From Candidatus Nanohaloarchaea archaeon (GTDB lineage Archaea; Nanohalarchaeota; Nanosalinia; Nanosalinales; Nanosalinaceae): a stretch of DNA of 22,688 nt. The notes under the pieces were generated by a model. The model had not been told where the DNA came from. It was given only the letters and a program-made list of their open reading frames with translations, and ran no database searches. The stretch covers positions 1 to 22,688 of the forward strand of contig JBDGRK010000020.1 of the NCBI GenBank assembly GCA_042218075.1, read 5' to 3'. Each line of letters starts with the position of its first letter. The first letter of the stretch is position 1. The position numbers and the translations under genes were made by a program. Shown here in pieces: positions 8,453 through 21,221 of the stretch.

Positions 8453-8482
8453 TTTTTGAAGAAAGGGGTCGAAAACTATACT

Positions 8483-11400
8483 ATGCCTGATGGAATGGAA
8501 CAGCAGATGGAATCGGGAGACCACAGAGAGATATCTGTGGCAGAGTTCTTCGAGAAGAACAAGCACCTTCTTGGTTTCGAAAACGCACAGAAATCGATTA
8601 TCACTGTTGTGAAGGAGGCGGTCGACAACTCTCTGACTTACTCAACGCCTTTCGTGTATAGAAAGGATGGGGAGACTGTACATGGGAAGATAGGTTCTGT
8701 TATAGATCGGATGATAGAGGAAAACAGAGAAAACGTTGAGACGAAGAGAGGCGGAGATCTTGAGAAGCTGAGACTGAAAGAGAGGGATGTAGAGTCTCTA
8801 AGCTTTGATACAGAAAGCTACGACTTGGATTTCAAGGATGTAAGCTCGGTTATGCGACATAAAGTGAACAGCGATATATTTGAAGTCGAGACTGAGGGAG
8901 GAAGAAAGGTGGAGCTGACGGACTATCATAGCGTCTTCGTGCTTAGAGACGGTGAAATAGTTTCAGTCGAGACGAGCGAGCTAGAAGAGAACGATTACAT
9001 AGTTATGCCTAAAGAGAGCTGGGGAGGGTCTAATATTAGAGATATAAATATCTTCAAGGAGCTTATGGCGCTTCCTGAGAGCGAGACAGAGGATCTAGGA
9101 CTTTATGAAGTAGAGAGCCTGATAGAGGAGTACAGGAGTCAAATTGAAGAATATGTAGACGAAAAGTATAGACTCCAAGACTTTAGGAAGTGTGATAGAC
9201 TACCGTTTAATATCGCCAGGAGGCTTGATCTGGATAAATCCGAGATTAGAGGATGTAAGATAGGATTCAAGTTAGGTCCAAACAATATACCGGCGGTAAT
9301 TTCGGCTGGTAGAGACTTAGCGGAGTTACTGGGTATATACGCAGCTGAAGGCTCAGTCACCGGAGGCAGGGAGAGGTATGAAAAAGTCTATTTCTCTCTT
9401 GGAAGCCATGAAAAAAAGTTGATTGATCATGTTGAAGCCTTGGTAGAAAGAGTATTTGGCCTGGAGCCCTCAACCGTGGACGCCCATGAATCTGCAGTAA
9501 ACGTTACAGTTAATTCAAAGGCCGCCGGCCTGGTCATGGAAAATGTATTCGGAATAGAGAACAGGGCTGACGAGAAAACTCTTCCACGTTTTGTCCTGGA
9601 TCTCTCTTCAGATCTCAGGGAGAGGTTCTTTATAGCCTATGCGGCCGGAGACGGCTATCCTACTGAGGAGATTATACCTGTGCTGAGAGATGGAGGAGAT
9701 ATAAGCGATGTAGCTGTAAACAAGATAACAGTTTCTTCTTCCTCCAGAATGCTCTCATCAGGTATGAGATATCTGCTTTCTTCAATAGGGATTGATTCGA
9801 CAGAGGAAAGAGCAGAGCCAGAGAACAGAACTGTAAAAGGAGAAGAAACAGAGTTTGGCGAGTCCTTCCTTGTCCATGTGAGAACTGGAGATACATCATA
9901 TTCAAACAGATTACCGGCTGAAGAGGTACTGGAGAAAGTAAGCAGTCCGAAACTGGAATACAACCTGGAGAATAGAAATCAGCAAAGGGTAGGGGCTTCT
10001 ACAGTTCTCAAAATGAAAGGTGAAAAGAAAGTAGAGTTTAAGGAAGAGGGTCTGAAGATAGCAGAAAGCGATCTGACCGCGGTCCCGATAAAATCGATTG
10101 AAAAGATAGAGTATAACCGGGAATGGGTATACGATGTTTCAGTGCCGGGTGATGAGAACTTTATGGCAGGAAATCACCCTCTCGCATGCCACAACTCGCT
10201 GGACGCATGCGAGGAAGACGAGATACTTCCGGAGATACACGTTCTTATTGACGAGATAGGAGACGACAAGTGCAGGGTTGAGATAAGGGATAACGCGATA
10301 GGACTCGACAGGCAGACGATACCCAAAGTCTTCGGTAAGCTTCTCTACGGATCAAAGTTCCACAAGCTACAGCAGTCGCTTCTTCCCGATCAGAAAGTAT
10401 TGGTTCGTAAGGACGGAGATGTGCAACTGGTGGAGATAGGACAGCTATGTGATGAACTTATAGAGTCTGAAGAAGGTGATAAAACGGCGAAGATAGATCA
10501 GAAAATTGAAGCACCGTGTTTCAAAAGAGCAACCGGCGAAGTTGCATGGAGAGATGTTACGCACGCTATTAGGCACGAAAATAGACATGAGACGTTCAGA
10601 ATTGAAACCTCTAGAGACAGGGAAATAGAAGTAACAGGGAACCACAGTTTGTTTGGGCTGACTAAAGAAGGTGAGATAGAAGAGATAGAGGCCTCTGAAC
10701 TGGGGGAAGGAGATTCAGTGCTATCTCCTCAAAAGATTCCGAATAAAGGAGAGAAAAATTCTCTCAATATTTTATCTCAATTTAAAGCAGATGAGATAGA
10801 AGAAATGCGCTGGTATGTATACGGTGTTTCAGAGGAAAAGCTCCAAGTAATCAAGAAGAAAGGGGAGAAAGTTAGGAAGAAACCATCGCCGGAGTCCAGG
10901 AAAAGAACCTACTATCGATATAAAGGAGTTGACATCCTAAAGGATAGCCTGGAACAGAATTACTTGGAAAAGAACTATCTGCCGGCTGAAAAGCTTCTCA
11001 GACTTGGATGGGAGGATAAAGTAGAGAACGGAAAGCTAAGAACCTATCAGGTGGGAGGGAATGAAAAAGAGATACCATTGAAAATTGATCTGGACTCAGA
11101 ATTTATGAGGTTCTTAGGACTTTTCGCTGCTGAAGGCCATGTGGACGAAAGACAGGCAGGTTTCACATTCGGCAGTCATGAGCAAGAATTTGTTTCAGAA
11201 GTAAGGCAGACTGCTGAAGATAAACTACAGATCTCAACAACTATGAACAAGAGAGAGGGTAATTCGACCAGAGTCAAGATCTTTGGAAGTCCTATTGTCA
11301 AGTTAATGGAGAAACTTTGTGGCAGAGGCGCTCAAAACAAGCATGTCCCGAACTTTGTGTTTGAAACATCGGAATGCAATCAGAAATCGTTCTTAAAGGG

Positions 11401-13333
11401 ACTTATAGATGGAGATGGAAGCACATCGCATCCCGGAAATGAGGTAAGCCTAACTTCAACCAGTAAAAGAATGGCTCAGCAAGTTTCATACCTTATTAAC
11501 ATGCTTGGTGTTGTCGCAAGCTGGAAGGAAAGAAGAAATGACTCCAACATATCGGGAGGAGAGACAGTCACCTATGATGTGCTTGTTCACGGGGAGGATT
11601 TAGAAGTACTAGACTTCGGGCATGACACAGAGAGAAAATCAAAGTACAAGATGCTGCCAGCAGAATTAATGGAGGATCTAAGAGTTAAGGAAGTAAATGC
11701 GATGAGAGTAAGATCAAACAAGGCAGGTCTGTACTATGCTGCAGGATTAGGAAGTAAGCCTCAGTTCTCAAAGAAATTCGTTGAAAAGGTGGAAAAGATT
11801 AAATCACGTGAAGAAGTGGAGGAGGACTACTATCTGAAAGAGTTAAGGAACAGAGGGCTTGTCGAACAGAAAAGTCTCACAAATAAGATGCAGAAGATAG
11901 AGGAAAGAGTTGAGAAGCTACTTGAATTCAGTGAATCCGATCTATGTCTATTGGATGTAAAAGAGATTGAAAAGACGAAATCTCCTGAATACGTCTACGA
12001 TATATCAGTTCCGGGAACGGGAAAAGATGAGAACTTTATAGCAGGCAACCAGGGGGCTCTTTGTGTCAAAAACAGCAGGGGCCAGCAGGGGATCGGAATT
12101 TCCGCCTCCGCGATGTATGCTCAACTTACTGCCGGAGAGCCCGTGACTGTATACTCCAAGATGGAGGGAGAGCCCTGCCACAAGTTTGTGGTGAGGATCG
12201 ACACAGAGGAGAACGAGCCGGAGATAATTGAAGACGAGGTTATAGAATCCGATTCAGAGGAGTTTCCGGGCGATAAAGACTACTACTTTGATCACGGAAC
12301 AACGATAGAAATGAATATAGAGGCCAAGTACACGAAAGGCCACCACTCCGTAAGGAACTACCTGAAGCACACCGCGATCATGAATCCCTACGCGAGAGTA
12401 GTTTTGAGAGAGCCAGACGGAAACAAGATAGAGTATCCAAGAGTCTCTAAAGAACTTCCAGAGAAGCCGAAGGAGATAAAGCCGCATCCTCACGGCGTGG
12501 AGCTGGGAGTAATGATGAGGATGATGGAGAATACAGATGCCAGAACTATCTCATCCTACCTACAGCAGGAGTTTACAAGGGTTGGGAGAACATCAGCGGA
12601 GGAGATATGTGATGAGGCTGAGATTGATACGGGCAGAAGACCTAACACGATGGACAAAGACGAGATAGAACAGCTTTTAAACGCTGCACAGAATGTAAAA
12701 CTGCAGAGTCCGCCGAAGGACTGTCTTTCTCCTATCGGAGAGGATCTAGTATTGAAGGGATTGAAGAAAGAGCTCAACCCGGAATTCTCCACCGCTATAA
12801 CAAGGAAACCTACAGTTTATGGCGGGAATCCGTTCCAGGTGGAAGTGGGACTTGCATGGGGAGGCGACATCGAGGAAGAGGGAAGCTACGATGAACTGAG
12901 GTATGCTAACAAGGTTCCCCTCCTCTACAAGAAATCTTCTTGCGTTACTACCAAAGCGATTGAGGAGGTATCATGGAACCGCTATAATGTCTCACAGGCA
13001 GGTGAGCGACCCCAGGGACCTCTCTACATACTAGTGCACATAGCCTCGGTCTGGGTTCCATTTACTTCAGAAGGAAAGGAGGCTGTAGCCAACTACGACC
13101 CGATCAGGAAGGAGATGAAGCTTGCGCTGCAGGAGGCGGGAAGGAAGCTCGGGAGATACATCGGAAGAAAGGAGAGGAAAGAGATACAGGAGAAGAAGAG
13201 AAGACAGTTAACCTCGTACGCGAAGGAGATGGGTCCGGCGATAGCAGAGCTTGCGGGAGAGGGAGACCCTGAAGAGATAGAAGACAAAATCCAGGAGATG
13301 GTCGAAAACGACTACAACCCTGAACAGCTTTAG
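8483..13333 (+). CDS. top6B: DNA topoisomerase VI subunit B precursor containing two inteins (mature protein about 528 aa from ATG 8483)
   Basis: Exteins rejoin as EISVAEFFEKNKHLLGF...KEAVDN|SLDACEE...LLYGSKFHKLQQ|SRGQQGIGISA..., followed by KPHPHG and RYANKVPL. Adjacent to top6A. Confidence 0.97.
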   Translation: MPDGMEQQMESGDHREISVAEFFEKNKHLLGFENAQKSIITVVKEAVDNSLTYSTPFVYRKDGETVHGKIGSVIDRMIEENRENVETKRGGDLEKLRLKERDVESLSFDTESYDLDFKDVSSVMRHKVNSDIFEVETEGGRKVELTDYHSVFVLRDGEIVSVETSELEENDYIVMPKESWGGSNIRDINIFKELMALPESETEDLGLYEVESLIEEYRSQIEEYVDEKYRLQDFRKCDRLPFNIARRLDLDKSEIRGCKIGFKLGPNNIPAVISAGRDLAELLGIYAAEGSVTGGRERYEKVYFSLGSHEKKLIDHVEALVERVFGLEPSTVDAHESAVNVTVNSKAAGLVMENVFGIENRADEKTLPRFVLDLSSDLRERFFIAYAAGDGYPTEEIIPVLRDGGDISDVAVNKITVSSSSRMLSSGMRYLLSSIGIDSTEERAEPENRTVKGEETEFGESFLVHVRTGDTSYSNRLPAEEVLEKVSSPKLEYNLENRNQQRVGASTVLKMKGEKKVEFKEEGLKIAESDLTAVPIKSIEKIEYNREWVYDVSVPGDENFMAGNHPLACHNSLDACEEDEILPEIHVLIDEIGDDKCRVEIRDNAIGLDRQTIPKVFGKLLYGSKFHKLQQSLLPDQKVLVRKDGDVQLVEIGQLCDELIESEEGDKTAKIDQKIEAPCFKRATGEVAWRDVTHAIRHENRHETFRIETSRDREIEVTGNHSLFGLTKEGEIEEIEASELGEGDSVLSPQKIPNKGEKNSLNILSQFKADEIEEMRWYVYGVSEEKLQVIKKKGEKVRKKPSPESRKRTYYRYKGVDILKDSLEQNYLEKNYLPAEKLLRLGWEDKVENGKLRTYQVGGNEKEIPLKIDLDSEFMRFLGLFAAEGHVDERQAGFTFGSHEQEFVSEVRQTAEDKLQISTTMNKREGNSTRVKIFGSPIVKLMEKLCGRGAQNKHVPNFVFETSECNQKSFLKGLIDGDGSTSHPGNEVSLTSTSKRMAQQVSYLINMLGVVASWKERRNDSNISGGETVTYDVLVHGEDLEVLDFGHDTERKSKYKMLPAELMEDLRVKEVNAMRVRSNKAGLYYAAGLGSKPQFSKKFVEKVEKIKSREEVEEDYYLKELRNRGLVEQKSLTNKMQKIEERVEKLLEFSESDLCLLDVKEIEKTKSPEYVYDISVPGTGKDENFIAGNQGALCVKNSRGQQGIGISASAMYAQLTAGEPVTVYSKMEGEPCHKFVVRIDTEENEPEIIEDEVIESDSEEFPGDKDYYFDHGTTIEMNIEAKYTKGHHSVRNYLKHTAIMNPYARVVLREPDGNKIEYPRVSKELPEKPKEIKPHPHGVELGVMMRMMENTDARTISSYLQQEFTRVGRTSAEEICDEAEIDTGRRPNTMDKDEIEQLLNAAQNVKLQSPPKDCLSPIGEDLVLKGLKKELNPEFSTAITRKPTVYGGNPFQVEVGLAWGGDIEEEGSYDELRYANKVPLLYKKSSCVTTKAIEEVSWNRYNVSQAGERPQGPLYILVHIASVWVPFTSEGKEAVANYDPIRKEMKLALQEAGRKLGRYIGRKERKEIQEKKRRQLTSYAKEMGPAIAELAGEGDPEEIEDKIQEMVENDYNPEQL
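8630..10195 (+). mobile_element. Intein 1 in Top6B (522 aa) with a LAGLIDADG homing endonuclease
   Basis: Starts SLTYSTP; block B LTDYHSVF; block C LLGIYAAEGS; block E AYAAGDG; block F VYDVSVPGDENF; ends CHN followed by extein Ser. Confidence 0.95.
10376..12073 (+). mobile_element. Intein 2 in Top6B (566 aa) with a LAGLIDADG homing endonuclease
   Basis: Starts SLLPDQK; block B VTGNHSLF; block C FLGLFAAEGH; block E FLKGLIDGDG; block F VYDISVPG...ENF; ends VKN followed by extein Ser. Confidence 0.95.
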
Positions 13334-14623: not shown

Positions 14624-14788
14624 GCCCAGATAGCTCAGTAGGTAGAGCGCCACGCTGTTAACTCCGCCTTTCTCTCGAGAAAGGTGGTTGAGAAAATCTC
14701 TGATCTTCGACTGCAGCTTTCTTGGTGAAAGCTGCTTGATAGGTCGACAGTTACGTGGTGGTCCCAGGTTCGAATCCTGGTCTGGGCG
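14624..14788 (+). tRNA. tRNA-Asn(GTT) with a 92-nt intron at 37/38 (intron 14661-14752)
   Basis: Acceptor GCCCAGA/TCTGGGC plus G; D arm GCTC/GAGC; anticodon stem CCACG/CGTGG; spliced loop CT-GTT-AA; T arm CCAGG-TTCGAAT-CCTGG. BHB central helix CTGT/ACAG with a TTA bulge. Confidence 0.95.
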
Positions 14789-14823
14789 TCACTCGGCTTG
14801 TTGAACGTCTTCTTGTAGAACTG

Positions 14824-14854: not shown

Positions 14855-16111
14855 ATGGGAGACGTTCACAACCGGAAAAAGAACCTGCAAAACACGTTAA
14901 ACAAGATCAGGGAAAACCCTGAACTATCCGAAGAAAACACGAAACTGCTGATAGAATTCAAGGATCACCTGCTCGCGGAAAACATTTCAGTAGAAAGAAC
15001 CTGCCGCTACATGAGCTCATGGAACACATTAGCACCTTTATTCGATTTCTCACTGGAAAACGCGGATAAGAAAGACCTGAAAAAACTGGTCGGGAAAATC
15101 AACCAGGATCAGATCAACGGAAAAGACTATAGTGTGTGGACCCTGGCCGAGTTCAAGAAAGCAGTACGGAAACTATACACGTACCTGGAAGGTGAGGAAG
15201 AACCCGAGCTTGTCGACTTTGTATCCGTCAACGTGAAAGAAACCGACAAACCCCGGACGGATCCATCTGAATTACCACGGCCCTCGGACGTCAAATCCAT
15301 GCTTAAACACGCATCCAATAACAGAGATAGGGCTTTAATCTTTTTCACATGGGATACAGGCGGTAGAATATCAGAAATCCTTAACGTGAAATGGAAAGAT
15401 ATAGAGTTTGGTGAAAACCTGACAAAAGTAAGATTCAGGGAATCCAAGACAGGTGAGAGAAAAGTACATATCCGTGAAAGCGTTGAAACAATTAAACAAT
15501 GGAAACAGGAATCGCCGAACACGGAACCGGACGACTACGTGTTTATCACGTTGAAAGGTTACGGTGAAACCGAGAAAGGCGACCAGATGCCATACAGTAC
15601 CGCCTCACAGATATTCAAGCGTCTAGGGGACGGTGCGGAGCTTGAATGCAAGTATAATCCTCATGCTTTCAGGAAAGGCAGAGCTACGAACATGGCGGGG
15701 CAGGGAATGAATCAGGCGCAGCTATGTGAATACTTTGGATGGGTGCAGGGATCAGACCAGGCCGCAACTTATATCCGTATGGCAGAGCAGGACCTGGAGA
15801 AAGCTGTAAAACAGATTCATGGCCTTGAGGAAACTGAGGAAGAGAAAGAGGATCTTTCTCCTAAGACGTGTGCGTCCTGTGATAGTGTGAATCCTGGTTA
15901 CCGGGATCAATGCAAGGAATGCGGCAACGCCATAACCGAGGACGTGGATAAAGTGATCGAGATGAAAGAGGAAGAGGTAACCAATGAGGTGAAAACGGAT
16001 ATTGTCGAGGAACTGTTTGACAAGATGGGGATGGACCAGGATGAAAGAGAACAGTTTATGGACCGGAAAATGGAGGAAAAGGTAAGTGAAATGGAGTTTT
16101 TCCAGCAGTAA
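14855..16111 (+). CDS. Tyrosine recombinase/integrase with a C-terminal Zn ribbon
   Basis: Catalytic set R (DTGGRISEIL), K (SKTG), HxxR (HAFR), W (FGW) and Y (ATYI); then CASC...CKEC. Confidence 0.95.
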   Translation: MGDVHNRKKNLQNTLNKIRENPELSEENTKLLIEFKDHLLAENISVERTCRYMSSWNTLAPLFDFSLENADKKDLKKLVGKINQDQINGKDYSVWTLAEFKKAVRKLYTYLEGEEEPELVDFVSVNVKETDKPRTDPSELPRPSDVKSMLKHASNNRDRALIFFTWDTGGRISEILNVKWKDIEFGENLTKVRFRESKTGERKVHIRESVETIKQWKQESPNTEPDDYVFITLKGYGETEKGDQMPYSTASQIFKRLGDGAELECKYNPHAFRKGRATNMAGQGMNQAQLCEYFGWVQGSDQAATYIRMAEQDLEKAVKQIHGLEETEEEKEDLSPKTCASCDSVNPGYRDQCKECGNAITEDVDKVIEMKEEEVTNEVKTDIVEELFDKMGMDQDEREQFMDRKMEEKVSEMEFFQQ

Positions 16112-16837: not shown

Positions 16838-17191
16838 TCAGGCGTTGATCTCTGCATCCACTTCGACGTGTTTCTCGGCCAGGGCAAAGAACTGATCCGT
16901 CACTTTGTCGCAGTCAAGGTTATGCATGCATTCCGTGCAGTAAACCAGTTCAGGTCCTGGAATAGCGTTCGTGACGAATGTAAAGAATTTCCTGTCTTCT
17001 AATACGTTGTCTCCGCAGTTGTGACAATCTGCTTCTTCAATTTCCAGTTGCACGCTTTCTTTCCAGACAGAGACAGTGTATCCTCTGGCCTGCAGCACTT
17101 GAAGATTTTTAATTGATTCTTCTGGGAAATCTTCTAGTTCGCCTGATTTGAGTTCGTCTATCGACGCTACCGTGTTTTCGAACTGTTTCAT
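16838..17191 (-). CDS. Hypothetical Zn-binding protein
   Basis: CHNC...CTEC motifs; ATGA coupling with the upstream gene. Confidence 0.75.
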   Translation of the reverse strand: MKQFENTVASIDELKSGELEDFPEESIKNLQVLQARGYTVSVWKESVQLEIEEADCHNCGDNVLEDRKFFTFVTNAIPGPELVYCTECMHNLDCDKVTDQFFALAEKHVEVDAEINA

Positions 17192-17382
17192 GGTTTCTCA
17201 CCTTTCTCGGAGTAGTATATTTTCTGGCTGTCTTCAATTTTGTAGCTGATGTCAGGGTAGTTGATCAAGCTCGCCATGTTTTTGTCTACCGTGGATTTGC
17301 TTAATCCTGTTTCTTCCACGATCTCTTCCTTTGTCAACGGTCCTTTTTCCTTTAGAAGTTTTGAAACCGAGTTCATACTCAT
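17188..17382 (-). CDS. Winged-helix DNA-binding protein
   Basis: LLKEKGPLTKEEIVEETGLSKSTVDKNMASL; ATGA overlaps on both sides. Confidence 0.8.
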   Translation of the reverse strand: MSMNSVSKLLKEKGPLTKEEIVEETGLSKSTVDKNMASLINYPDISYKIEDSQKIYYSEKGEKP

Positions 17383-17768
17383 TTCGGAATATTCACCCTT
17401 TCGAGTACGGATTCGCCTAGAGAGTTTATCTGGTAGAATATCCGCCGGTCCTCGATACCTTTCTTTTCGATCAAGTTGTATTTTTTCAGTTTATTTAAGT
17501 GGTAGTAGACTTTGGATTTGCTCATGTCAAGATCCTTGGCTATACTGTAGACATAGTCTTGGTTCTGCAGATGTGCCAGTATTTTTCTAGTGCTTCTATT
17601 CCCGATTTTCCGTGCTATCAGATCCGGATCTAGTTTTTCACTGTTTTGTTCTTGCTTTCCCTTGCCTTTTCCGTTATTTCTTACTTCCTGACTATCATTT
17701 GATCTTTCAATTTCTCCATAAGTTTCACCGTAATTTGACCCTTCCTTTTGACTCCTTGAATTCTTCAT
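17379..17768 (-). CDS. ArsR-like winged-helix transcription regulator
   Basis: STRKILAHL...YSIAKDLDMSKSKVYYHLNKLKKYNLIE...YQINSLG. Confidence 0.85.
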   Translation of the reverse strand: MKNSRSQKEGSNYGETYGEIERSNDSQEVRNNGKGKGKQEQNSEKLDPDLIARKIGNRSTRKILAHLQNQDYVYSIAKDLDMSKSKVYYHLNKLKKYNLIEKKGIEDRRIFYQINSLGESVLERVNIPK

Positions 17769-20700
17769 TCAGCTCTTCACCTCGGCTTCAACTTTCCATT
17801 TTCCATTATCTCTTTTTGCCAAATCTCTTTCTTCAAGAGAATTAAGAATCTCTCCCGCTTTTTCTATTTCTATCCCTGTGGATTTTGACACTTTATGAGA
17901 TCCTGCTTTAGGATAATGTTTGATGAATTTGAGGACCCTTTCTACCTGTTCATCAAGATCATCTACTGAGGATATTGAGGATATTGAAGATATTGAGGAG
18001 TTTTCAGTATGCTCAGTAGATTCAGAGGGATGATTTTTACTACTATCTTGATTTTCATTGTCAACAAGATCATCAATATATTCGGTTAAATTATAGCGAG
18101 TCATTGAATCCTTGAAAGTAGTCTTATCGATCTCCAAACAAGTATACCCTTCCTGATCCTTAACCTTCATGCTATCAGACCGTATAAGGTCATAATCCCT
18201 CAACCTCTTCCCAACTCCCTGACTAGAAAGCTGATAATCCTCACTTCTGTCCAATTCCTCATTAACATATTCTGCAAGGTCCTGGAATCTTATTCTTATC
18301 TGATCGGCTTCTTTATCATTAAAATCGAGAATTATTTTATCCAGAATTGTCTGAACGGTTTTCGATATGTCAGATACGCCGCTTATATCCTCTTCTTCCT
18401 TTATTCTCGACTTAAGCTTGGTAGCCCTATCTTCCCCTTTGAAATATTTGAGAATTCCGCAGAATAATGCTATCTTATCAGCCTCTCTTCCAGATACATT
18501 CAACTTATCTCGATAACTGGAAACTTGATCGGTAATTTTTTCCCAGTTAAATAATGTGAACGCCGATATATGATTTCTCAGTTGTTGAGCCTCCCCCTTA
18601 TTCTCCATTTCGATCTTTGCAGGATCGTCCATATCCTCATCCGTCCTGACAGTTTTTAGGAAGACGCACCTGCTTTCAAAACTGTCAGCCCAACCCTTGA
18701 TACTGTTTGCACTAATCTTCTTAGGATTGAAGCTGTATATTGAAGTAATCTGGTCTTCGATTCCAACCCTATCAGGATCCGCGATTGGATAACTACCGTT
18801 TTTCCTGTATCCTGAATTAAATAATTGCTCAGTATCGCTTCTTGATTCCTCACTTCCTTTCTCAGTTTCCTCGAGATTGAGGCTGGCCTGGAAGCTATGA
18901 GCGAATCGTATACTGGCCTTTGGAGTACCAACATTAGGTCCCAAACCGTTGTATTCAAGCCAAGAGGAGGCAAGTTGAAGATTGGTTTTTCCTGTATCTG
19001 GTTCACCGTGAAGGTATAGATAGAAAGTATACCCTATTGGCGTGATCAAGTATGTGTGGACAATATAAGCGGCGATTAAATCATACCATTCTTCGTGGTA
19101 ATGATTCCAATAGCGTTTGATAAACTCAATTATTTCATCAAATAACTGTTCCTTGTTCTTGATTTGGTCAGGATTTTTGACCAGTTTTATAACCTGGTTT
19201 GTGGGAGCTCTGATCTGTGGAGCGGGCTTGTCCGCTATTTTGTGCTTGAATTGAACTTCTTCATCGTTCAGGTTTATATAGTCATAATCTATTGCCTGCT
19301 TGTCTTTCTTTGGTACTTCCTTCCATTTTCCCTGCTCTTCCAACTCAATCTTTCGTTCAGATTTCTTATTTCTTATTTGCTTGATCTGTCCATCACTTGT
19401 TATTATTGCCTTACGGAATCTTCCTCTTTCTTGATCGTATATCCATATTGTCTGGAAGAAAGTTCCATTGACTACTCCGGTCAGCCTTTTTTTCACTGGT
19501 TGCTTTGCCTCGGCAAGTTGGTCAATTTTCCCCTCCCAACTCTGATCATACTGAGAATATTGCTCAGTATTCTCAATATCTTCAATATCTTCAGTAGATT
19601 CCGCTCTTAATTCTTTAAGTTCGTCTTCAAGTTTGGGTTTTTTGACAGGCAACTTCGTGAGTATAGGATCTATATCTATATCTGACCAATCTTTCACTAG
19701 GTTAAGAACCTCTTTACACTTCTCACCTTGTTTCCTATTGTCTGCATTTTTAGCCTCTTGAATTAGTTGATCTAGGAAAGTTTTTGCATCTTCAATCAAT
19801 CCTGTCAAATCATATCCGTTTTCACTGGTCCAGTCATCAAGATCCATGCCCTCTGGCAGGTCAATCATGTACGGGTTCACACCGTTTTCAAGTAGTAATT
19901 CCGCTGTCTTTCTCTGTCCTTTCTGCCCTGGACCGTCCTGATCCATGGCTATATACACATTTTCAGCGTGCTGAACTCTTTCAACCACTTTCTCAACTTC
20001 TTTATTTGAAAACCGTGTGGTGACAGGGCTGACAACTGTAAAACCTGCCTTATTGGCGCTTATTGAATCCGTAATGCCTTCGGTAATAAACACTCCGTCT
20101 TTCTCACCTTGAAGCTCGTACGGAGTGTTTTTGATGTAATCAGTCGTGTAGTTCTTCTTGTACTTTGCATCGCTATCGCTCCCCGGCAACCTTCTGCCGA
20201 TAGTGAATACGGTTCTATTACCTTGAAGGTAGGGCCATATTATCCGGTTTTCTAAATGTGAATAAAGTTCACCATCTTCGCTTTGCCCGAAAAACCCTGA
20301 GTCTAGAAGAGCTTGCTTATCAAAACGCTGTTTCAATATTTCGATGTCGTCAGATGTAGGTATTCCGGGCCTTGATTTTTCAATATCCTCTTCTTCAAAA
20401 CTTCTTCTTTCCTTAATATCTTCCAATATATCGGAGTGCCTCTTTTTCAAGCTGTCATGCGCTAATTCTGTTGCTTTGGTCAGAACTTGAATCGCTTTCT
20501 GCTTCCTGTCGACATCTTCTTTGTCAACATCTTTGAACTCTTCAGGAAAGTGTTCTTTTAACCATTCAACTGCCTTATCAACTGAATTCCATCCCTTTGT
20601 GTGCATGACTAAAGTCGCTGGACTCTCTCCACCTTCTCCGTGGCATGCAAAGTGGCTTCCGTGGTAAACCGACAGATCGCCGGTATCCAGGTCGCATTCA

Positions 20701-20780
20701 GGACAGTAATAGTCTGTTCTGTCACTGTATCTACCTTCTACTTGCAAATCCAGTTCTTCAGCTATTTGTTTCAAGTTCAC
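17769..20780 (-). CDS. Replication protein: Zn finger + DnaG-like TOPRIM primase + P-loop ATPase/helicase (DUF3631-associated type) + C-terminal wHTH
   Basis: CPEC...ACH; ENRIIWPY, IGRRL and KY (DnaG catalytic core); ITEGITDSIS, AMDQDGPG and DLDDW (TOPRIM); GEPDTGKT (Walker A), LNLEETE (Walker B-like), FNSGY, FESRC, GREAD; KRLRDYDL; terminal helix-turn-helix-wing. Confidence 0.85.
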   Translation of the reverse strand: MNLKQIAEELDLQVEGRYSDRTDYYCPECDLDTGDLSVYHGSHFACHGEGGESPATLVMHTKGWNSVDKAVEWLKEHFPEEFKDVDKEDVDRKQKAIQVLTKATELAHDSLKKRHSDILEDIKERRSFEEEDIEKSRPGIPTSDDIEILKQRFDKQALLDSGFFGQSEDGELYSHLENRIIWPYLQGNRTVFTIGRRLPGSDSDAKYKKNYTTDYIKNTPYELQGEKDGVFITEGITDSISANKAGFTVVSPVTTRFSNKEVEKVVERVQHAENVYIAMDQDGPGQKGQRKTAELLLENGVNPYMIDLPEGMDLDDWTSENGYDLTGLIEDAKTFLDQLIQEAKNADNRKQGEKCKEVLNLVKDWSDIDIDPILTKLPVKKPKLEDELKELRAESTEDIEDIENTEQYSQYDQSWEGKIDQLAEAKQPVKKRLTGVVNGTFFQTIWIYDQERGRFRKAIITSDGQIKQIRNKKSERKIELEEQGKWKEVPKKDKQAIDYDYINLNDEEVQFKHKIADKPAPQIRAPTNQVIKLVKNPDQIKNKEQLFDEIIEFIKRYWNHYHEEWYDLIAAYIVHTYLITPIGYTFYLYLHGEPDTGKTNLQLASSWLEYNGLGPNVGTPKASIRFAHSFQASLNLEETEKGSEESRSDTEQLFNSGYRKNGSYPIADPDRVGIEDQITSIYSFNPKKISANSIKGWADSFESRCVFLKTVRTDEDMDDPAKIEMENKGEAQQLRNHISAFTLFNWEKITDQVSSYRDKLNVSGREADKIALFCGILKYFKGEDRATKLKSRIKEEEDISGVSDISKTVQTILDKIILDFNDKEADQIRIRFQDLAEYVNEELDRSEDYQLSSQGVGKRLRDYDLIRSDSMKVKDQEGYTCLEIDKTTFKDSMTRYNLTEYIDDLVDNENQDSSKNHPSESTEHTENSSISSISSISSVDDLDEQVERVLKFIKHYPKAGSHKVSKSTGIEIEKAGEILNSLEERDLAKRDNGKWKVEAEVKS
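17964..18027. repeat. 9-bp-period repeat cluster A (4 forward + 2-3 inverted TAYTGAR units)
   Basis: TACTGAG 17964, TATTGAG 17973, TATTGAA 17982, TATTGAG 17991; inverted TTCAGTA 18003, CTCAGTA 18012, degenerate TTCAGAG 18021. Confidence 0.85.
19549..19601. repeat. 9-bp-period repeat cluster B (1 forward + 4 inverted TAYTGAR units)
   Basis: TACTGAG 19549; inverted CTCAGTA 19563, CTCAATA 19572, TTCAATA 19581, TTCAGTA 19590. Shares TCAGTAGATTC with cluster A. Confidence 0.85.
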
Positions 20781-20899
20781 ATTATCAGACTCATAGTCTT
20801 TTCAGTTTCAACTGGTTTTTCGCTGCAACTGCATTGACCCATATTCTCACGGTCGCTCCAGTATTCTTGACCGCATTCTTTGCATTTCCAGAGAATCAT
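20777..20899 (-). CDS. Small Zn-finger-like protein (40 aa)
   Basis: MILWKCKECGQEYWSDRENMGQCSCSEKPVETEKTMSLIM; SD GAGGTGA; TGA overlaps the primase GTG. Not in the ORF track. Confidence 0.7.
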   Translation of the reverse strand: MILWKCKECGQEYWSDRENMGQCSCSEKPVETEKTMSLIM

Positions 20900-21039
20900 G
20901 CTTTCACCTCTCCCGTCTGTATGATTTCCTCTTTAAAGCAAAAAGGACACAAATCCCGATGGGTCACTTCTTGAAGCCACCAAGCCACCAAAAATTCTTC
21001 ATCCAATCTCAAGTCGCAGCTGCGGCATCGGTAGTTCAT
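20896..21039 (-). CDS. Small Zn-finger protein (47 aa)
   Basis: MNYRCRSCDLRLDEEFLVAWWLQEVTHRDLCPFCFKEEIIQTGEVKA; ATGA overlaps on both sides. Not in the ORF track. Confidence 0.75.
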   Translation of the reverse strand: MNYRCRSCDLRLDEEFLVAWWLQEVTHRDLCPFCFKEEIIQTGEVKA

Positions 21040-21221
21040 TCTACCCCATCCTCTTTGTAGTAGTTGTCTATGATTTCACGGAGCTTTTTGCTGGCGTTTC
21101 CTGTTTCTTGAAGCTTCTCAAGCTGGTCTTCTCCAATGTAAAACGTTTTCTCTGTCTTCTCACGTTCAATAGAATCGGAGTTCTTGTAGAACTTCTTTTC
21201 AACAGCCAGTTCTTGAACCAT
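21036..21221 (-). CDS. Ribbon-helix-helix-like DNA-binding protein
   Basis: KTFYIGEDQLEKLQETGNASKKLREIIDNY fits a strand-helix-helix pattern. Confidence 0.7.
   Translation of the reverse strand: MVQELAVEKKFYKNSDSIEREKTEKTFYIGEDQLEKLQETGNASKKLREIIDNYYKEDGVE

Follow-up and report, generated by a model that had tools for sequence, protein, structure and literature searches.

In phage lambda the iterons of ori lie in the part of gene O that codes for an inter-domain linker, and they form one cluster of four 19-bp internally symmetric units beside an AT-rich stretch. The alpha protein of P4 is a multifunctional primase–helicase with a C-terminal DNA-binding domain, for which one repeated motif occurs in two separated regions (ori and crr) that lie outside the alpha gene and kilobases apart, and the phage-plasmid N15 has a single intragenic ori inside its primase–helicase gene repA; we know of no description of either P4 or N15 as having two mirror arrays in linkers flanking the helicase module. 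To our knowledge the replication origins of DPANN (Diapherotrites, Parvarchaeota, Aenigmarchaeota, Nanoarchaeota and Nanohaloarchaeota) archaea, their plasmids and their viruses are almost unknown, and none has been mapped in the Nanohaloarchaeota. Iterons inside an initiator gene are known for lambda O (PMC7157519). The PriRep origins of staphylococcal pathogenicity islands (SaPIs) are reported to have penta- or hexanucleotide iterons in two opposed sets, bound by the C-terminal winged helices of the Rep/PriRep hexamer; the cryo-electron microscopy structure of PriRep5 has four winged-helix domains of the hexamer on three direct iterons and one inverted iteron, and the ori, of about 300 bp, lies downstream of the genes with its two sets flanking a short AT-rich spacer (10.64898/2026.10.17.759575). 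Here we analyse a 22,688-nt contig (C13, referred to as the window, meaning this whole stretch) of a 40-contig, 1.1-Mb (1,103,323 nt) archaeal genome bin, in which an integrated mobile element has a 1003-aa gene as its sole replication gene. Within this gene, two mirror arrays of a 9-bp repeat flank the part coding for a predicted ATPase. These arrays are very probably a selected cis-acting DNA element, and they may be iterons read by the element's own initiator.

The gene and the repeats that it contains are as follows.

17769..20780, minus strand: replication gene, 1003 aa, from open reading frame (ORF) and translation.
19561..19597, minus strand: linker-1 array, four 9-bp units ACTGAAGAT ATTGAAGAT ATTGAGAAT ACTGAGCAA on the coding strand, translated T-E-D, I-E-D, I-E-N, T-E-Q.
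19549..19555, plus strand: one TACTGAG copy in inverted orientation, inward of the linker-1 array, making a 7-bp stem and 7-nt loop with the last unit.
17964..17999, plus strand: linker-2 array, four 9-bp units pointing the opposite way, TACTGAGGA TATTGAGGA TATTGAAGA TATTGAGGA, where the coding strand gives S-S-I-S-S-I-S-S-I-S-S-V.
18003..18023, minus strand: two coding-direction copies, TACTGAG and TACTGAA, on the inner side of the linker-2 array, read E-S-T-E-H-T-E.

The motif TAYTGAR occurs 28 times in the window as against 13.94 ± 3.45 times in dinucleotide-preserving shuffles, the largest of which gave 24, so that none of the 100 shuffles reached the observed count, and 11 of the 28 copies fall within two clusters. 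Cluster A has plus-strand copies at 17964, 17973, 17982 and 17991, in exact 9-bp steps, and minus-strand copies at 18003 and 18012; cluster B has one plus-strand copy at 19549 and minus-strand copies at 19563, 19572, 19581 and 19590. When a cluster is defined as at least three motifs with gaps of at most 20 nt, these are the only two in the 40 contigs of the genome, and both lie in the replication gene. A 45-nt inverted repeat, 82% complementary, pairs 17961–18005 with 19555–19599 and leaves 1549 nt between its arms. The sequence TCAGTAGATTC is present in both clusters, the copies at 18003..18023 start with GAATCTACTGA, as does linker 1, and the cluster peptides in the 1003-aa ORF are ESTEDIEDIENTE and SSISSISSISSV. 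An earlier, sequence-only reading of this DNA had described TAYTGAR at an exact 9-bp period in two clusters about 1.55 kb apart, with four forward copies and two or three inverted ones in A and one forward and four inverted copies in B, a sequence common to both and differing peptides; our motif count and the spacing of the arms bear this description out, with two inverted copies in A, and the genome-wide count that it had suggested produced no third cluster in 1.1 Mb. Contigs from two public runs, of two studies, span both clusters in the same arrangement, one run possibly being the window's own source. A register-specific matching of C/T variants between the arms of the window (C,T,T,C against C,T,T,T) was considered and discarded, as chance gives it about half the time.

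Protein searches yielded seven close homologues, and DNA was obtained from scans of genome and metagenome contigs together with 70 genomes of the phylum. These scans gave four further full-length genes, L001 (56% identity), L003 (42%), L025 (35%) and L185 (about 47% over the module), as well as the partial contig L004. In all five full-length genes, the window's included, the best long-range inverted repeat joins the same two linkers, 1540–1628 nt apart, and its score was judged against the highest of 20 codon shuffles per gene, the partial genes L004, L023 and L024 being outside this scoring.

WIN, the window's own gene: inverted-repeat score 22, shuffle maximum 15.
L001: inverted-repeat score 27, shuffle maximum 13.
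L025: inverted-repeat score 30, shuffle maximum 14.
L003: inverted-repeat score 15, shuffle maximum 13, the weakest of the five.
L185: inverted-repeat score 21, shuffle maximum 15.

Primase fusions with other C-terminal modules (L002, L005, L026–L030 and L103) scored 10–13, and none of these eight exceeded its shuffle maximum. Runs of in-phase hexamers are confined to the two linkers in every locus, apart from a two-copy run elsewhere in the window. Each array comprises four 9-bp units, that is, a hexamer core and a 3-nt spacer, which point inward to the central module in all five genes; linker 2 of L003 has an in-phase run of three, with a fourth copy, ACTGAG, about 20 nt outside. Inward of the arrays follows a G-rich/GTT flank, such as GGAGTTTTCC (L001) or CGGGTT (L025). 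The core is AYTGAR in the window, ACTGAG in L001, L025 and L004, and ACGGAG in L003 and L185 (with single variant cores ACTGAG in L003 and ACAGAG in L185), which gives ACKGAG as the shared core and AYTGAR as the window's form of it. The window has extra inverted copies, one or two on the inner side of each array.

The way in which these units are translated separates the DNA word from the peptide. The linker-1 hexamer begins at codon position 1 in all five genes (Thr-Glu-x), and for the reverse-complement hexamer of linker 2 the reading offset is 2 in three genes (Ser-Val/Ile-Ser) and 1 in the other two (Ala-Gln-Ser; Ser-Pro-Ser). Moreover, L001 has ACT GAG with TCA GTA and L185 has ACG GAG with TCC GTA for identical peptides (T-E-x and S-V-S), that is, synonymous codons co-vary across the linkers, ACT with TCA and ACG with TCC. 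Over the 33 arm positions of the five genes, aligned in register, 85.3% of the arm cells are complementary compared with 76.7 ± 1.8% in shuffles (0 of 500 reach the observed value), and changes on both sides are found at 8 of the 33 positions, a number attained by 4 of 500 shuffles; when partners are slid by 1–3 columns as a control, complementarity is 31–43%. All eight units of L001 keep TACTGAG and the 3-nt spacers differ between the arms, and an invariant core with free spacers is typical of protein-binding repeats. Since the frame in which linker 2 is translated differs between genes and synonymous codons correspond across the linkers, it is the DNA word that appears conserved and not the peptide, and these comparisons support selection on the DNA motif rather than on the protein. 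The sequence-only reading had proposed just this, and the paired arrays in five of five full-length genes, the two frames and the synonymous co-variation uphold the proposal. It had also inferred binding sites for the Rep wHTH that form a two-part origin or autoregulatory loop, an inference that homologues devoid of DNA-level repeats at the linkers would have refuted; the relatives do carry the repeats, so that this refutation failed.

The protein that carries these linkers runs from a Zn-ribbon/DnaG-type Toprim primase through linker 1, a central module and linker 2 to a small C-terminal domain, and the central module is ordered as beta-rich N-domain, P-loop ATPase, helical part and winged helix 1.

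18006..19538, minus strand: central module between the arrays (~aa 415–925), from a structure model with weak fold matches.
18069..18377, minus strand: winged helix 1 (~aa 802–904), conserved in the family, from a model with a predicted local distance difference test (pLDDT) value of about 95 and from alignment.
17772..17963, minus strand: C-terminal tail after linker 2, which may form a second winged helix and shows poor conservation (Pfam TrmB E 0.073, below cut-off; pLDDT 42–64).

Pfam, PHROGs, NCBIfam and PDB sequences place the DnaG-type Toprim primase at residues ~56–366: Pfam Toprim_2 matches aa 231–316 (E 1e-11, 45.4 bits against a cut-off of 22.1), DNAG_N falls just under its cut-off at aa 112–210 (25.1 bits against 26), a PHROG DNA primase matches aa 69–366, DnaG primases of the PDB match at E 1e-17, and TIGR01391 (dnaG) matches aa 56–364. 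Since the TIGR01391 score is far below the equivalog cut-off, the N-terminal part is related to cellular DnaG but distinct from it. The central ~500 residues, in which a Walker A motif, HGEPDTGKT, lies at about 18984–19010, gave no match in Pfam, NCBIfam or PDB sequence profiles, and the Atlas gave for this module unnamed clusters together with DUF3631 on 25% of one cluster, no more than a lead. Residues 415–935 were modelled with AlphaFold at a mean pLDDT of 68, with less than 50 in the P-loop core. Foldseek returned for this model weak matches only, at E about 1e-2 (ORC/Cdc6, MCM, SaPIbov1 Rep and Cch of the staphylococcal cassette chromosome mec, SCCmec), and the whole-model structural matches are SCCmec Cch (5dgk_B; Z 6.9, 268 aligned) and SaPIbov1 Rep (8tch_B; Z 5.8, 284 aligned). 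A wide structural search brought many winged-helix matches, at Z 6–7, for model residues 389–492. In a second model, of residues 795–1003, winged helix 1 is confident, the linker-2 stretch is disordered (pLDDT about 40) and the C-terminal domain is uncertain. Residues 1–13 of the central-module model (linker 1) and residues 116–146 of the C-terminal model (linker 2, covering the second array) have a pLDDT below 50, which supports the earlier claim that both clusters fall in inter-domain linkers; the arrays sit at the boundary of primase and module and at that of winged helix 1 and C-terminal domain. As modelled, the protein holds the parts of a self-loading initiator: primase, P-loop module and winged helix. 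As an observation apart, a 40-bp AT-rich window (AT 0.72–0.80) is found ~350 nt inside linker 2, at the start of the part coding for winged helix 1, in three of the five genes (about 18308–18347 in the window, 2786 in L001 and 2980 in L185), and AT-rich DNA (0.75–0.85) occurs 280–680 nt downstream of linker 2 in three of the five, namely the window, L003 and L025.

At the protein level, a profile of the central module, run against 1.84 billion representatives, matched 2709 proteins at E ≤ 1e-3, of which 75 reached E ≤ 1e-30, and searches for relatives of this module in IMG/VR and in PLSDB plasmids gave none. The family includes forms with an archaeo-eukaryotic primase (AEP)-like N-domain and stand-alone proteins of 500–650 aa, one of them labelled Candidatus Aenigmarchaeota. 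Arrays occur with Toprim, with an AEP-like domain plus zf-CHC2 (P0018, P0020 and P0022) and without any primase (P0027 and P0029); judged from these sequences, it is the ATPase/winged-helix module that they accompany, not the primase. When 152 family proteins were scanned for arrays of tripeptide period, 40 had at least two, giving 49 within-protein pairs, from which we removed the six of P0132, whose repeats are collagen-like, a same-unit pair in P0140 and five duplicate unit pairs, leaving 37 unique pairs. Some choice of codons makes the two units exact reverse complements in 11 of these 37, compared with 89 of 1733 cross-protein pairs (5.1%; binomial p 1.6e-6, a value which is indicative only, since the proteins are related and were back-translated), and a reverse-complement fit of at least 8/9 is reached by 30 of the 37 against 35% of cross-protein pairs. 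Such pairs include YLS with VTE, where back-translation yields the same ACTGAG word, as well as EVS with SET and NEP/DEP with GSF/GSS. One subgroup of stand-alone proteins, AT-rich in its DNA, has both arrays adjacent in the last linker, for example SLT ×3 beside SEE ×4. The outcome suggests that the paired-array pattern may extend across a large DPANN helicase family.

Two further observations concern the make-up of this family. The stand-alone proteins P0032, P0033 and P0036 have an extra tripeptide array, of NGK or RNG repeats, just before their SEV/STV array; NGK is not reverse-complement compatible with the neighbouring SEV in P0032 and P0033 (6/9), and RNG is compatible with STV in P0036 (9/9). 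The same Toprim primase, up to about 50% identical to that of the window, is fused to unrelated C-terminal modules in other elements (L002, L024, L103, L188–L190 and L193; proteins P0007–P0009 and P0164), none of which has arrays; the alternative modules include one of unknown kind, one that resembles D5 and contains GQGQNGKT, and one that is MCM-like. Since the same primase is found on different modules and the same module on different N-terminal domains, linker 1 is a breakpoint of module shuffling.

We suggest that the arrays are initiator-binding iterons that constitute a split origin or a control site, a reading to which we give a probability of roughly 0.45. They would be cis-acting sites embedded in the protein-coding DNA of the replication gene of the element itself, and the winged-helix domains of the primase–helicase-like initiator would bind them as iterons. 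Modelled on the SaPI PriRep5 origin complex, one protein ring would be seated on each array, and because the arrays face each other the two rings would have opposite polarities, one at each end of the 1.55-kb ATPase-coding segment, the outcome being either a split origin or a copy-control/autoregulatory site. The 9-bp pitch and the placement in disordered linkers may be adaptations to life in a reading frame: 9 bp being three codons, copies can be gained or lost without a frame break, and disordered linkers should tolerate almost any peptide at the arrays. We infer the binding of protein to the arrays, the identity of the binder and the link to the start or control of replication from the following. 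There are four units at exact 9-bp pitch per cluster, placed inside the initiator gene of an integrase-bearing element, and this arrangement is kept in all five full-length genes while the core drifts in a manner matched between the linkers; arrays that are unique, paired, oriented and conserved as DNA, and that track the ATPase/winged-helix module in the element's sole replication gene, fit an initiator's own binding sites. The wider proposition, that a large DPANN mobile-element initiator/helicase gene family carries its own intragenic origin in the form of two mutually reverse-complementary iteron arrays in the disordered linkers flanking the ATPase/winged-helix module or, in the compact forms, adjacent to each other in the last linker, we regard as rather doubtful.

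Several points weigh against initiator-bound iterons. No AT-rich unwinding element adjoins the arrays within the 60-bp flanks of the five genes, where AT is 0.52–0.67 with gene means of 0.55–0.61, and the top AT windows lie away from the arrays. In contrast to SaPI, the sets are intragenic, translated and separated by 1.55 kb around the ATPase-coding part, without an AT-rich neighbour, and such spacing between sets is without precedent in the published accounts consulted. There are several candidate readers, namely winged helix 1, the poorly conserved C-terminal domain and a downstream ArsR-like winged helix–turn–helix (wHTH) protein. The core is near-constant at 35–56% identity, while winged helix 1 is variable in its presumed recognition helix and conservation of the C-terminal domain is poor; moreover, no winged-helix residue segregates with the ACT as opposed to the ACG motifs, in a comparison of few sequences with three rows badly anchored. 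The fold matches of the ATPase are weak, all with Z < 8 and thus under the level of a safe fold match, and its P-loop core is the low-pLDDT part of the model. Of the close homologues, P0004 has degenerate arrays only, and the arrays of P0026 fit at 8/9 only. The family-wide test is built on back-translation and not on DNA, and its members are related to one another. Finally, the L004 contig, with its segment inverted at an array, speaks for recombination.

The alternatives draw in part on the surroundings of the gene. The left part of the window is chromosomal, with genes for topoisomerase VI B (with inteins) and A, eIF-1A, RIO1, NMD3 and KH proteins, and a close homologue of the 1003-aa gene carries the source label Candidatus Nanohaloarchaea. 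From ~14.6 kb the gene content switches to a tRNA gene, a tyrosine recombinase, small ORFs, wHTH genes (two within 17188–17768) and the 1003-aa gene.

14624..14788, plus strand: tRNA gene with a long intron (Rfam RF00005, 57.7 bits; 165-nt span against a 71-position model).
14855..16111, plus strand: tyrosine recombinase (integrase; Pfam Phage_integrase E 2e-24; XerA-like E 4.9e-24, below cut-off).
17379..17768, minus strand: ArsR/PadR-like wHTH gene directly downstream of the replication gene (Pfam HTH_5 E 2.9e-8).

This change of content, the tRNA/integrase pair and a dip in G+C (from ~0.47 to 0.40 across 16–20 kb) show the region from ~14.6 kb to be an integrated mobile element adjoining a tRNA gene. 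The tRNA gene is the sole Rfam match in the window and, next to the integrase as it is, the likely integration target of the element; ARAGORN detected no tRNA in the window, this gene included. As to an attachment site, nothing turned up beyond a 13-nt direct repeat (TTCTTGTAGAACT) at 14810–14822 and 21181–21193, a match at chance level genome-wide. The repeat pair would delimit a 6.4-kb element, from the integrase to just beyond the replication gene, an extent that agrees with the G+C dip and with the 3.3–6.6-kb contigs of the relatives. Most family members lie on very short contigs (3.3–8.7 kb), mostly filled by the gene, which hints at small plasmids or at multi-copy elements that are hard to assemble; a terminal overlap of 15–200 nt, indicative of circular closure, was absent from all nine short contigs tested. 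In the chromosomal part, the topoisomerase VI B gene (8456–13333, plus strand; 1625 aa) contains two intein splicing-domain stretches and LAGLIDADG homing-endonuclease domains.

A live alternative, although we consider it unlikely, is that the arrays are recombination sites, used either for inversion of the 1.55-kb segment by the tyrosine recombinase or homologous recombination, or as joints for the exchange of ATPase modules between primase genes; inversion would inactivate the gene, of which a short-tailed primase would remain. The arrangement resembles invertible segments and the yeast 2-micron FLP system in that inverted repeats (here 45 nt, 82%) flank a segment with a tyrosine recombinase nearby and that the contig of one relative is flipped. 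On this contig, L004 (= G060:C95; 2222 nt, 72% nucleotide identity to L025), the inter-array segment is inverted, such that the end of the ATPase module (aa 541–946, plus strand) abuts the end of the primase (aa 89–421, minus strand) with the junction inside one four-unit array at 1190–1230, the exact product expected of a crossover between arrays. In addition, linker 1 as an evolutionary breakpoint (~50% identical primase on unrelated C-terminal modules, the same module on different N-terminal domains) would suit module exchange, matched changes in both arms are also expected from gene conversion, and the integrase, 1.7 kb off, is weakly like tyrosine-type invertases (E 3.4e-9, far below cut-off).

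Known DNA switches have two useful states and defined core sites, and the core sites of tyrosine recombinases are unlike four tandem 9-bp units. Here, in contrast, inversion cuts the gene short, the repeat units are 9-mers in tandem and the flip is seen on one short contig, for which a mis-join by the assembler at the inverted repeat would look identical. In L004 the primase frame ends 40 codons past the array and the module frame stops right after it, with no useful alternative product seen, so that a working product is found in one orientation of the segment. In the window, contigs of runs X1 and X2 (17000–20900) bridge both arrays in the reference orientation and without joints, at a depth of about 5 and as contigs, in which rare forms are lost; as regards both orientations, there is thus one flipped contig of a relative and only the reference form in the window's runs. 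No other pieces of the L004 gene were found in its genome bin, and a search for short primase-plus-array proteins, as marks of further flips, gave one match, of another subfamily. Recombination alone leaves unexplained why the core is kept across relatives while the spacers drift. Since the flipped gene is broken, we read L004 as more probably a by-product than a switch.

Unlikely too, and placed by us behind recombination, is that another protein of the element binds the arrays, for example the downstream ArsR-like wHTH protein, with a role in partition (centromere-like), in transcription control or as an intragenic roadblock. Plasmid centromeres are typically short tandem repeats bound by small helix–turn–helix or ribbon–helix–helix proteins, and a wHTH gene of 128–133 aa directly follows the replication gene on the same strand in the three of three such loci with downstream DNA (window, L195 and L025). 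The wHTH proteins of the window (17379–17768, minus strand) and of L195 (6760–7161, plus strand) are 69% identical, more conserved than the replication proteins; this similarity is held although the hexamers differ (AYTGAR against ACGGAG), which argues against their reading the hexamer. Conversely, the L025 protein has no BLASTP similarity to that of the window, yet L025 has the ACTGAG motif too, and the ORF that comes next in L003 lies on the opposite strand and belongs to no family. Moreover, the arrays track the ATPase/winged-helix module through very different contexts.

We give little credence to nucleic-acid pairing, in which the arms would anneal in mRNA or in a single-stranded DNA intermediate as a panhandle, looping out the ATPase-coding part, with consequences for translation control or for the chemistry of replication. 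The arms are 76–92% complementary over 36–67 nt in the genes, and the two-sided changes at 8 of the 33 positions keep this complementarity. However, among the transition differences between arms in the window, L001 and L025, a hand count in mRNA sense gives 11 A·C against 2 G·U, with one such mismatch in each of three units of L025, the invariant core with spacers unmatched in register fits a protein site better than a helix, and a 1.5-kb loop closed by a mismatched 36-nt helix would be a weak structure. There is no Rfam family match at the arrays. Local hairpins or cruciforms were rejected as a conserved feature, with DNA folds at z −2.0 and −2.1 in the window only, as compared with −1.1, +1.3, 0.0 and +0.6 in L001 and L025.

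Least credible of all is that the arrays have no function and are slippage-prone 9-bp repeats in disordered linkers that tolerate them, kept alike by occasional gene conversion: copy numbers and units do vary between genes and P0004 has apparently lost clear arrays, but four units stand at both linkers in five of five genes (three in phase and one outside in linker 2 of L003), the inward orientation and a GGTT-type inner flank are common to the genes, the core is held across 35–56% identity and two reading frames, the signal is family-wide at the protein level, and gene conversion that is not backed by selection would be unable to preserve a motif across such distances. Recognition sites for the primase were rejected, because arrays occur with AEP-type N-domains and without any primase.

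Returning to the wider proposition of a family with intragenic origins, if it is true the gene would be a self-contained replicon in which a single DNA segment supplies both the protein and its binding sites, the unit of array, module and array could pass as a cassette between primase genes, the 9-bp pitch would be a cost imposed by the reading frame, and the L004 inversion would be a by-product, or a form of control, of two protein-bound inverted arrays. The locus also offers a clean natural case of dual coding, in which one stretch of DNA serves as protein linker and as cis element, and translation of the same DNA word gives Thr-Glu-x, Ser-Val-Ser or Ala-Gln-Ser according to strand and frame. 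The signature, consisting of paired reverse-complementary 9-bp linker arrays with conservation across frames and synonymous co-variation, singles out candidate sites of exactly defined position, 36 bp long, in five or more elements. Should DNA sequences bear out the family-wide signal, thousands of unannotated archaeal elements could be searched for origins by means of this signature, which would also explain the movement of the module between primase genes.

Of the described systems the nearest that has been studied is SaPI, in which a primase is joined to a ring ATPase bearing a winged-helix DNA-binding domain; the locus shares with it a primase and a winged helix in the protein, a hexamer core in the repeat and two opposed clusters, and its central module, with the predicted ATPase, is weakly fold-like to SaPIbov1 Rep (Z 5.8) and SCCmec Cch (Z 6.9). 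The clusters contain four direct units and one or two inverted copies, where SaPI PriRep5 has three direct iterons and one inverted, and the host here is an archaeon. As in lambda O, the repeats lie inside the initiator's own gene, and here both arrays code for low-confidence, presumably disordered linkers; in contrast to lambda, there are two mirror clusters of asymmetric 9-bp units with no AT-rich stretch, and lambda O is neither primase nor helicase. P4 and N15 resemble the locus in having a multifunctional primase–helicase, P4 also in its one repeated motif in two regions and N15 in the intragenic position of its origin; the central module here differs in that no sequence similarity to known families was found for it in Pfam, NCBIfam or PDB sequences. 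Our literature searches produced no description of such paired arrays and none that pairs Nanohaloarchaeota with iterons. What is new here, compared with these systems, is the presence of two mirror arrays that flank an ATPase module and are translated in both orientations and in two frames, the synonymous co-variation between their linkers, and their occurrence in elements of DPANN archaea with a family-wide signal.

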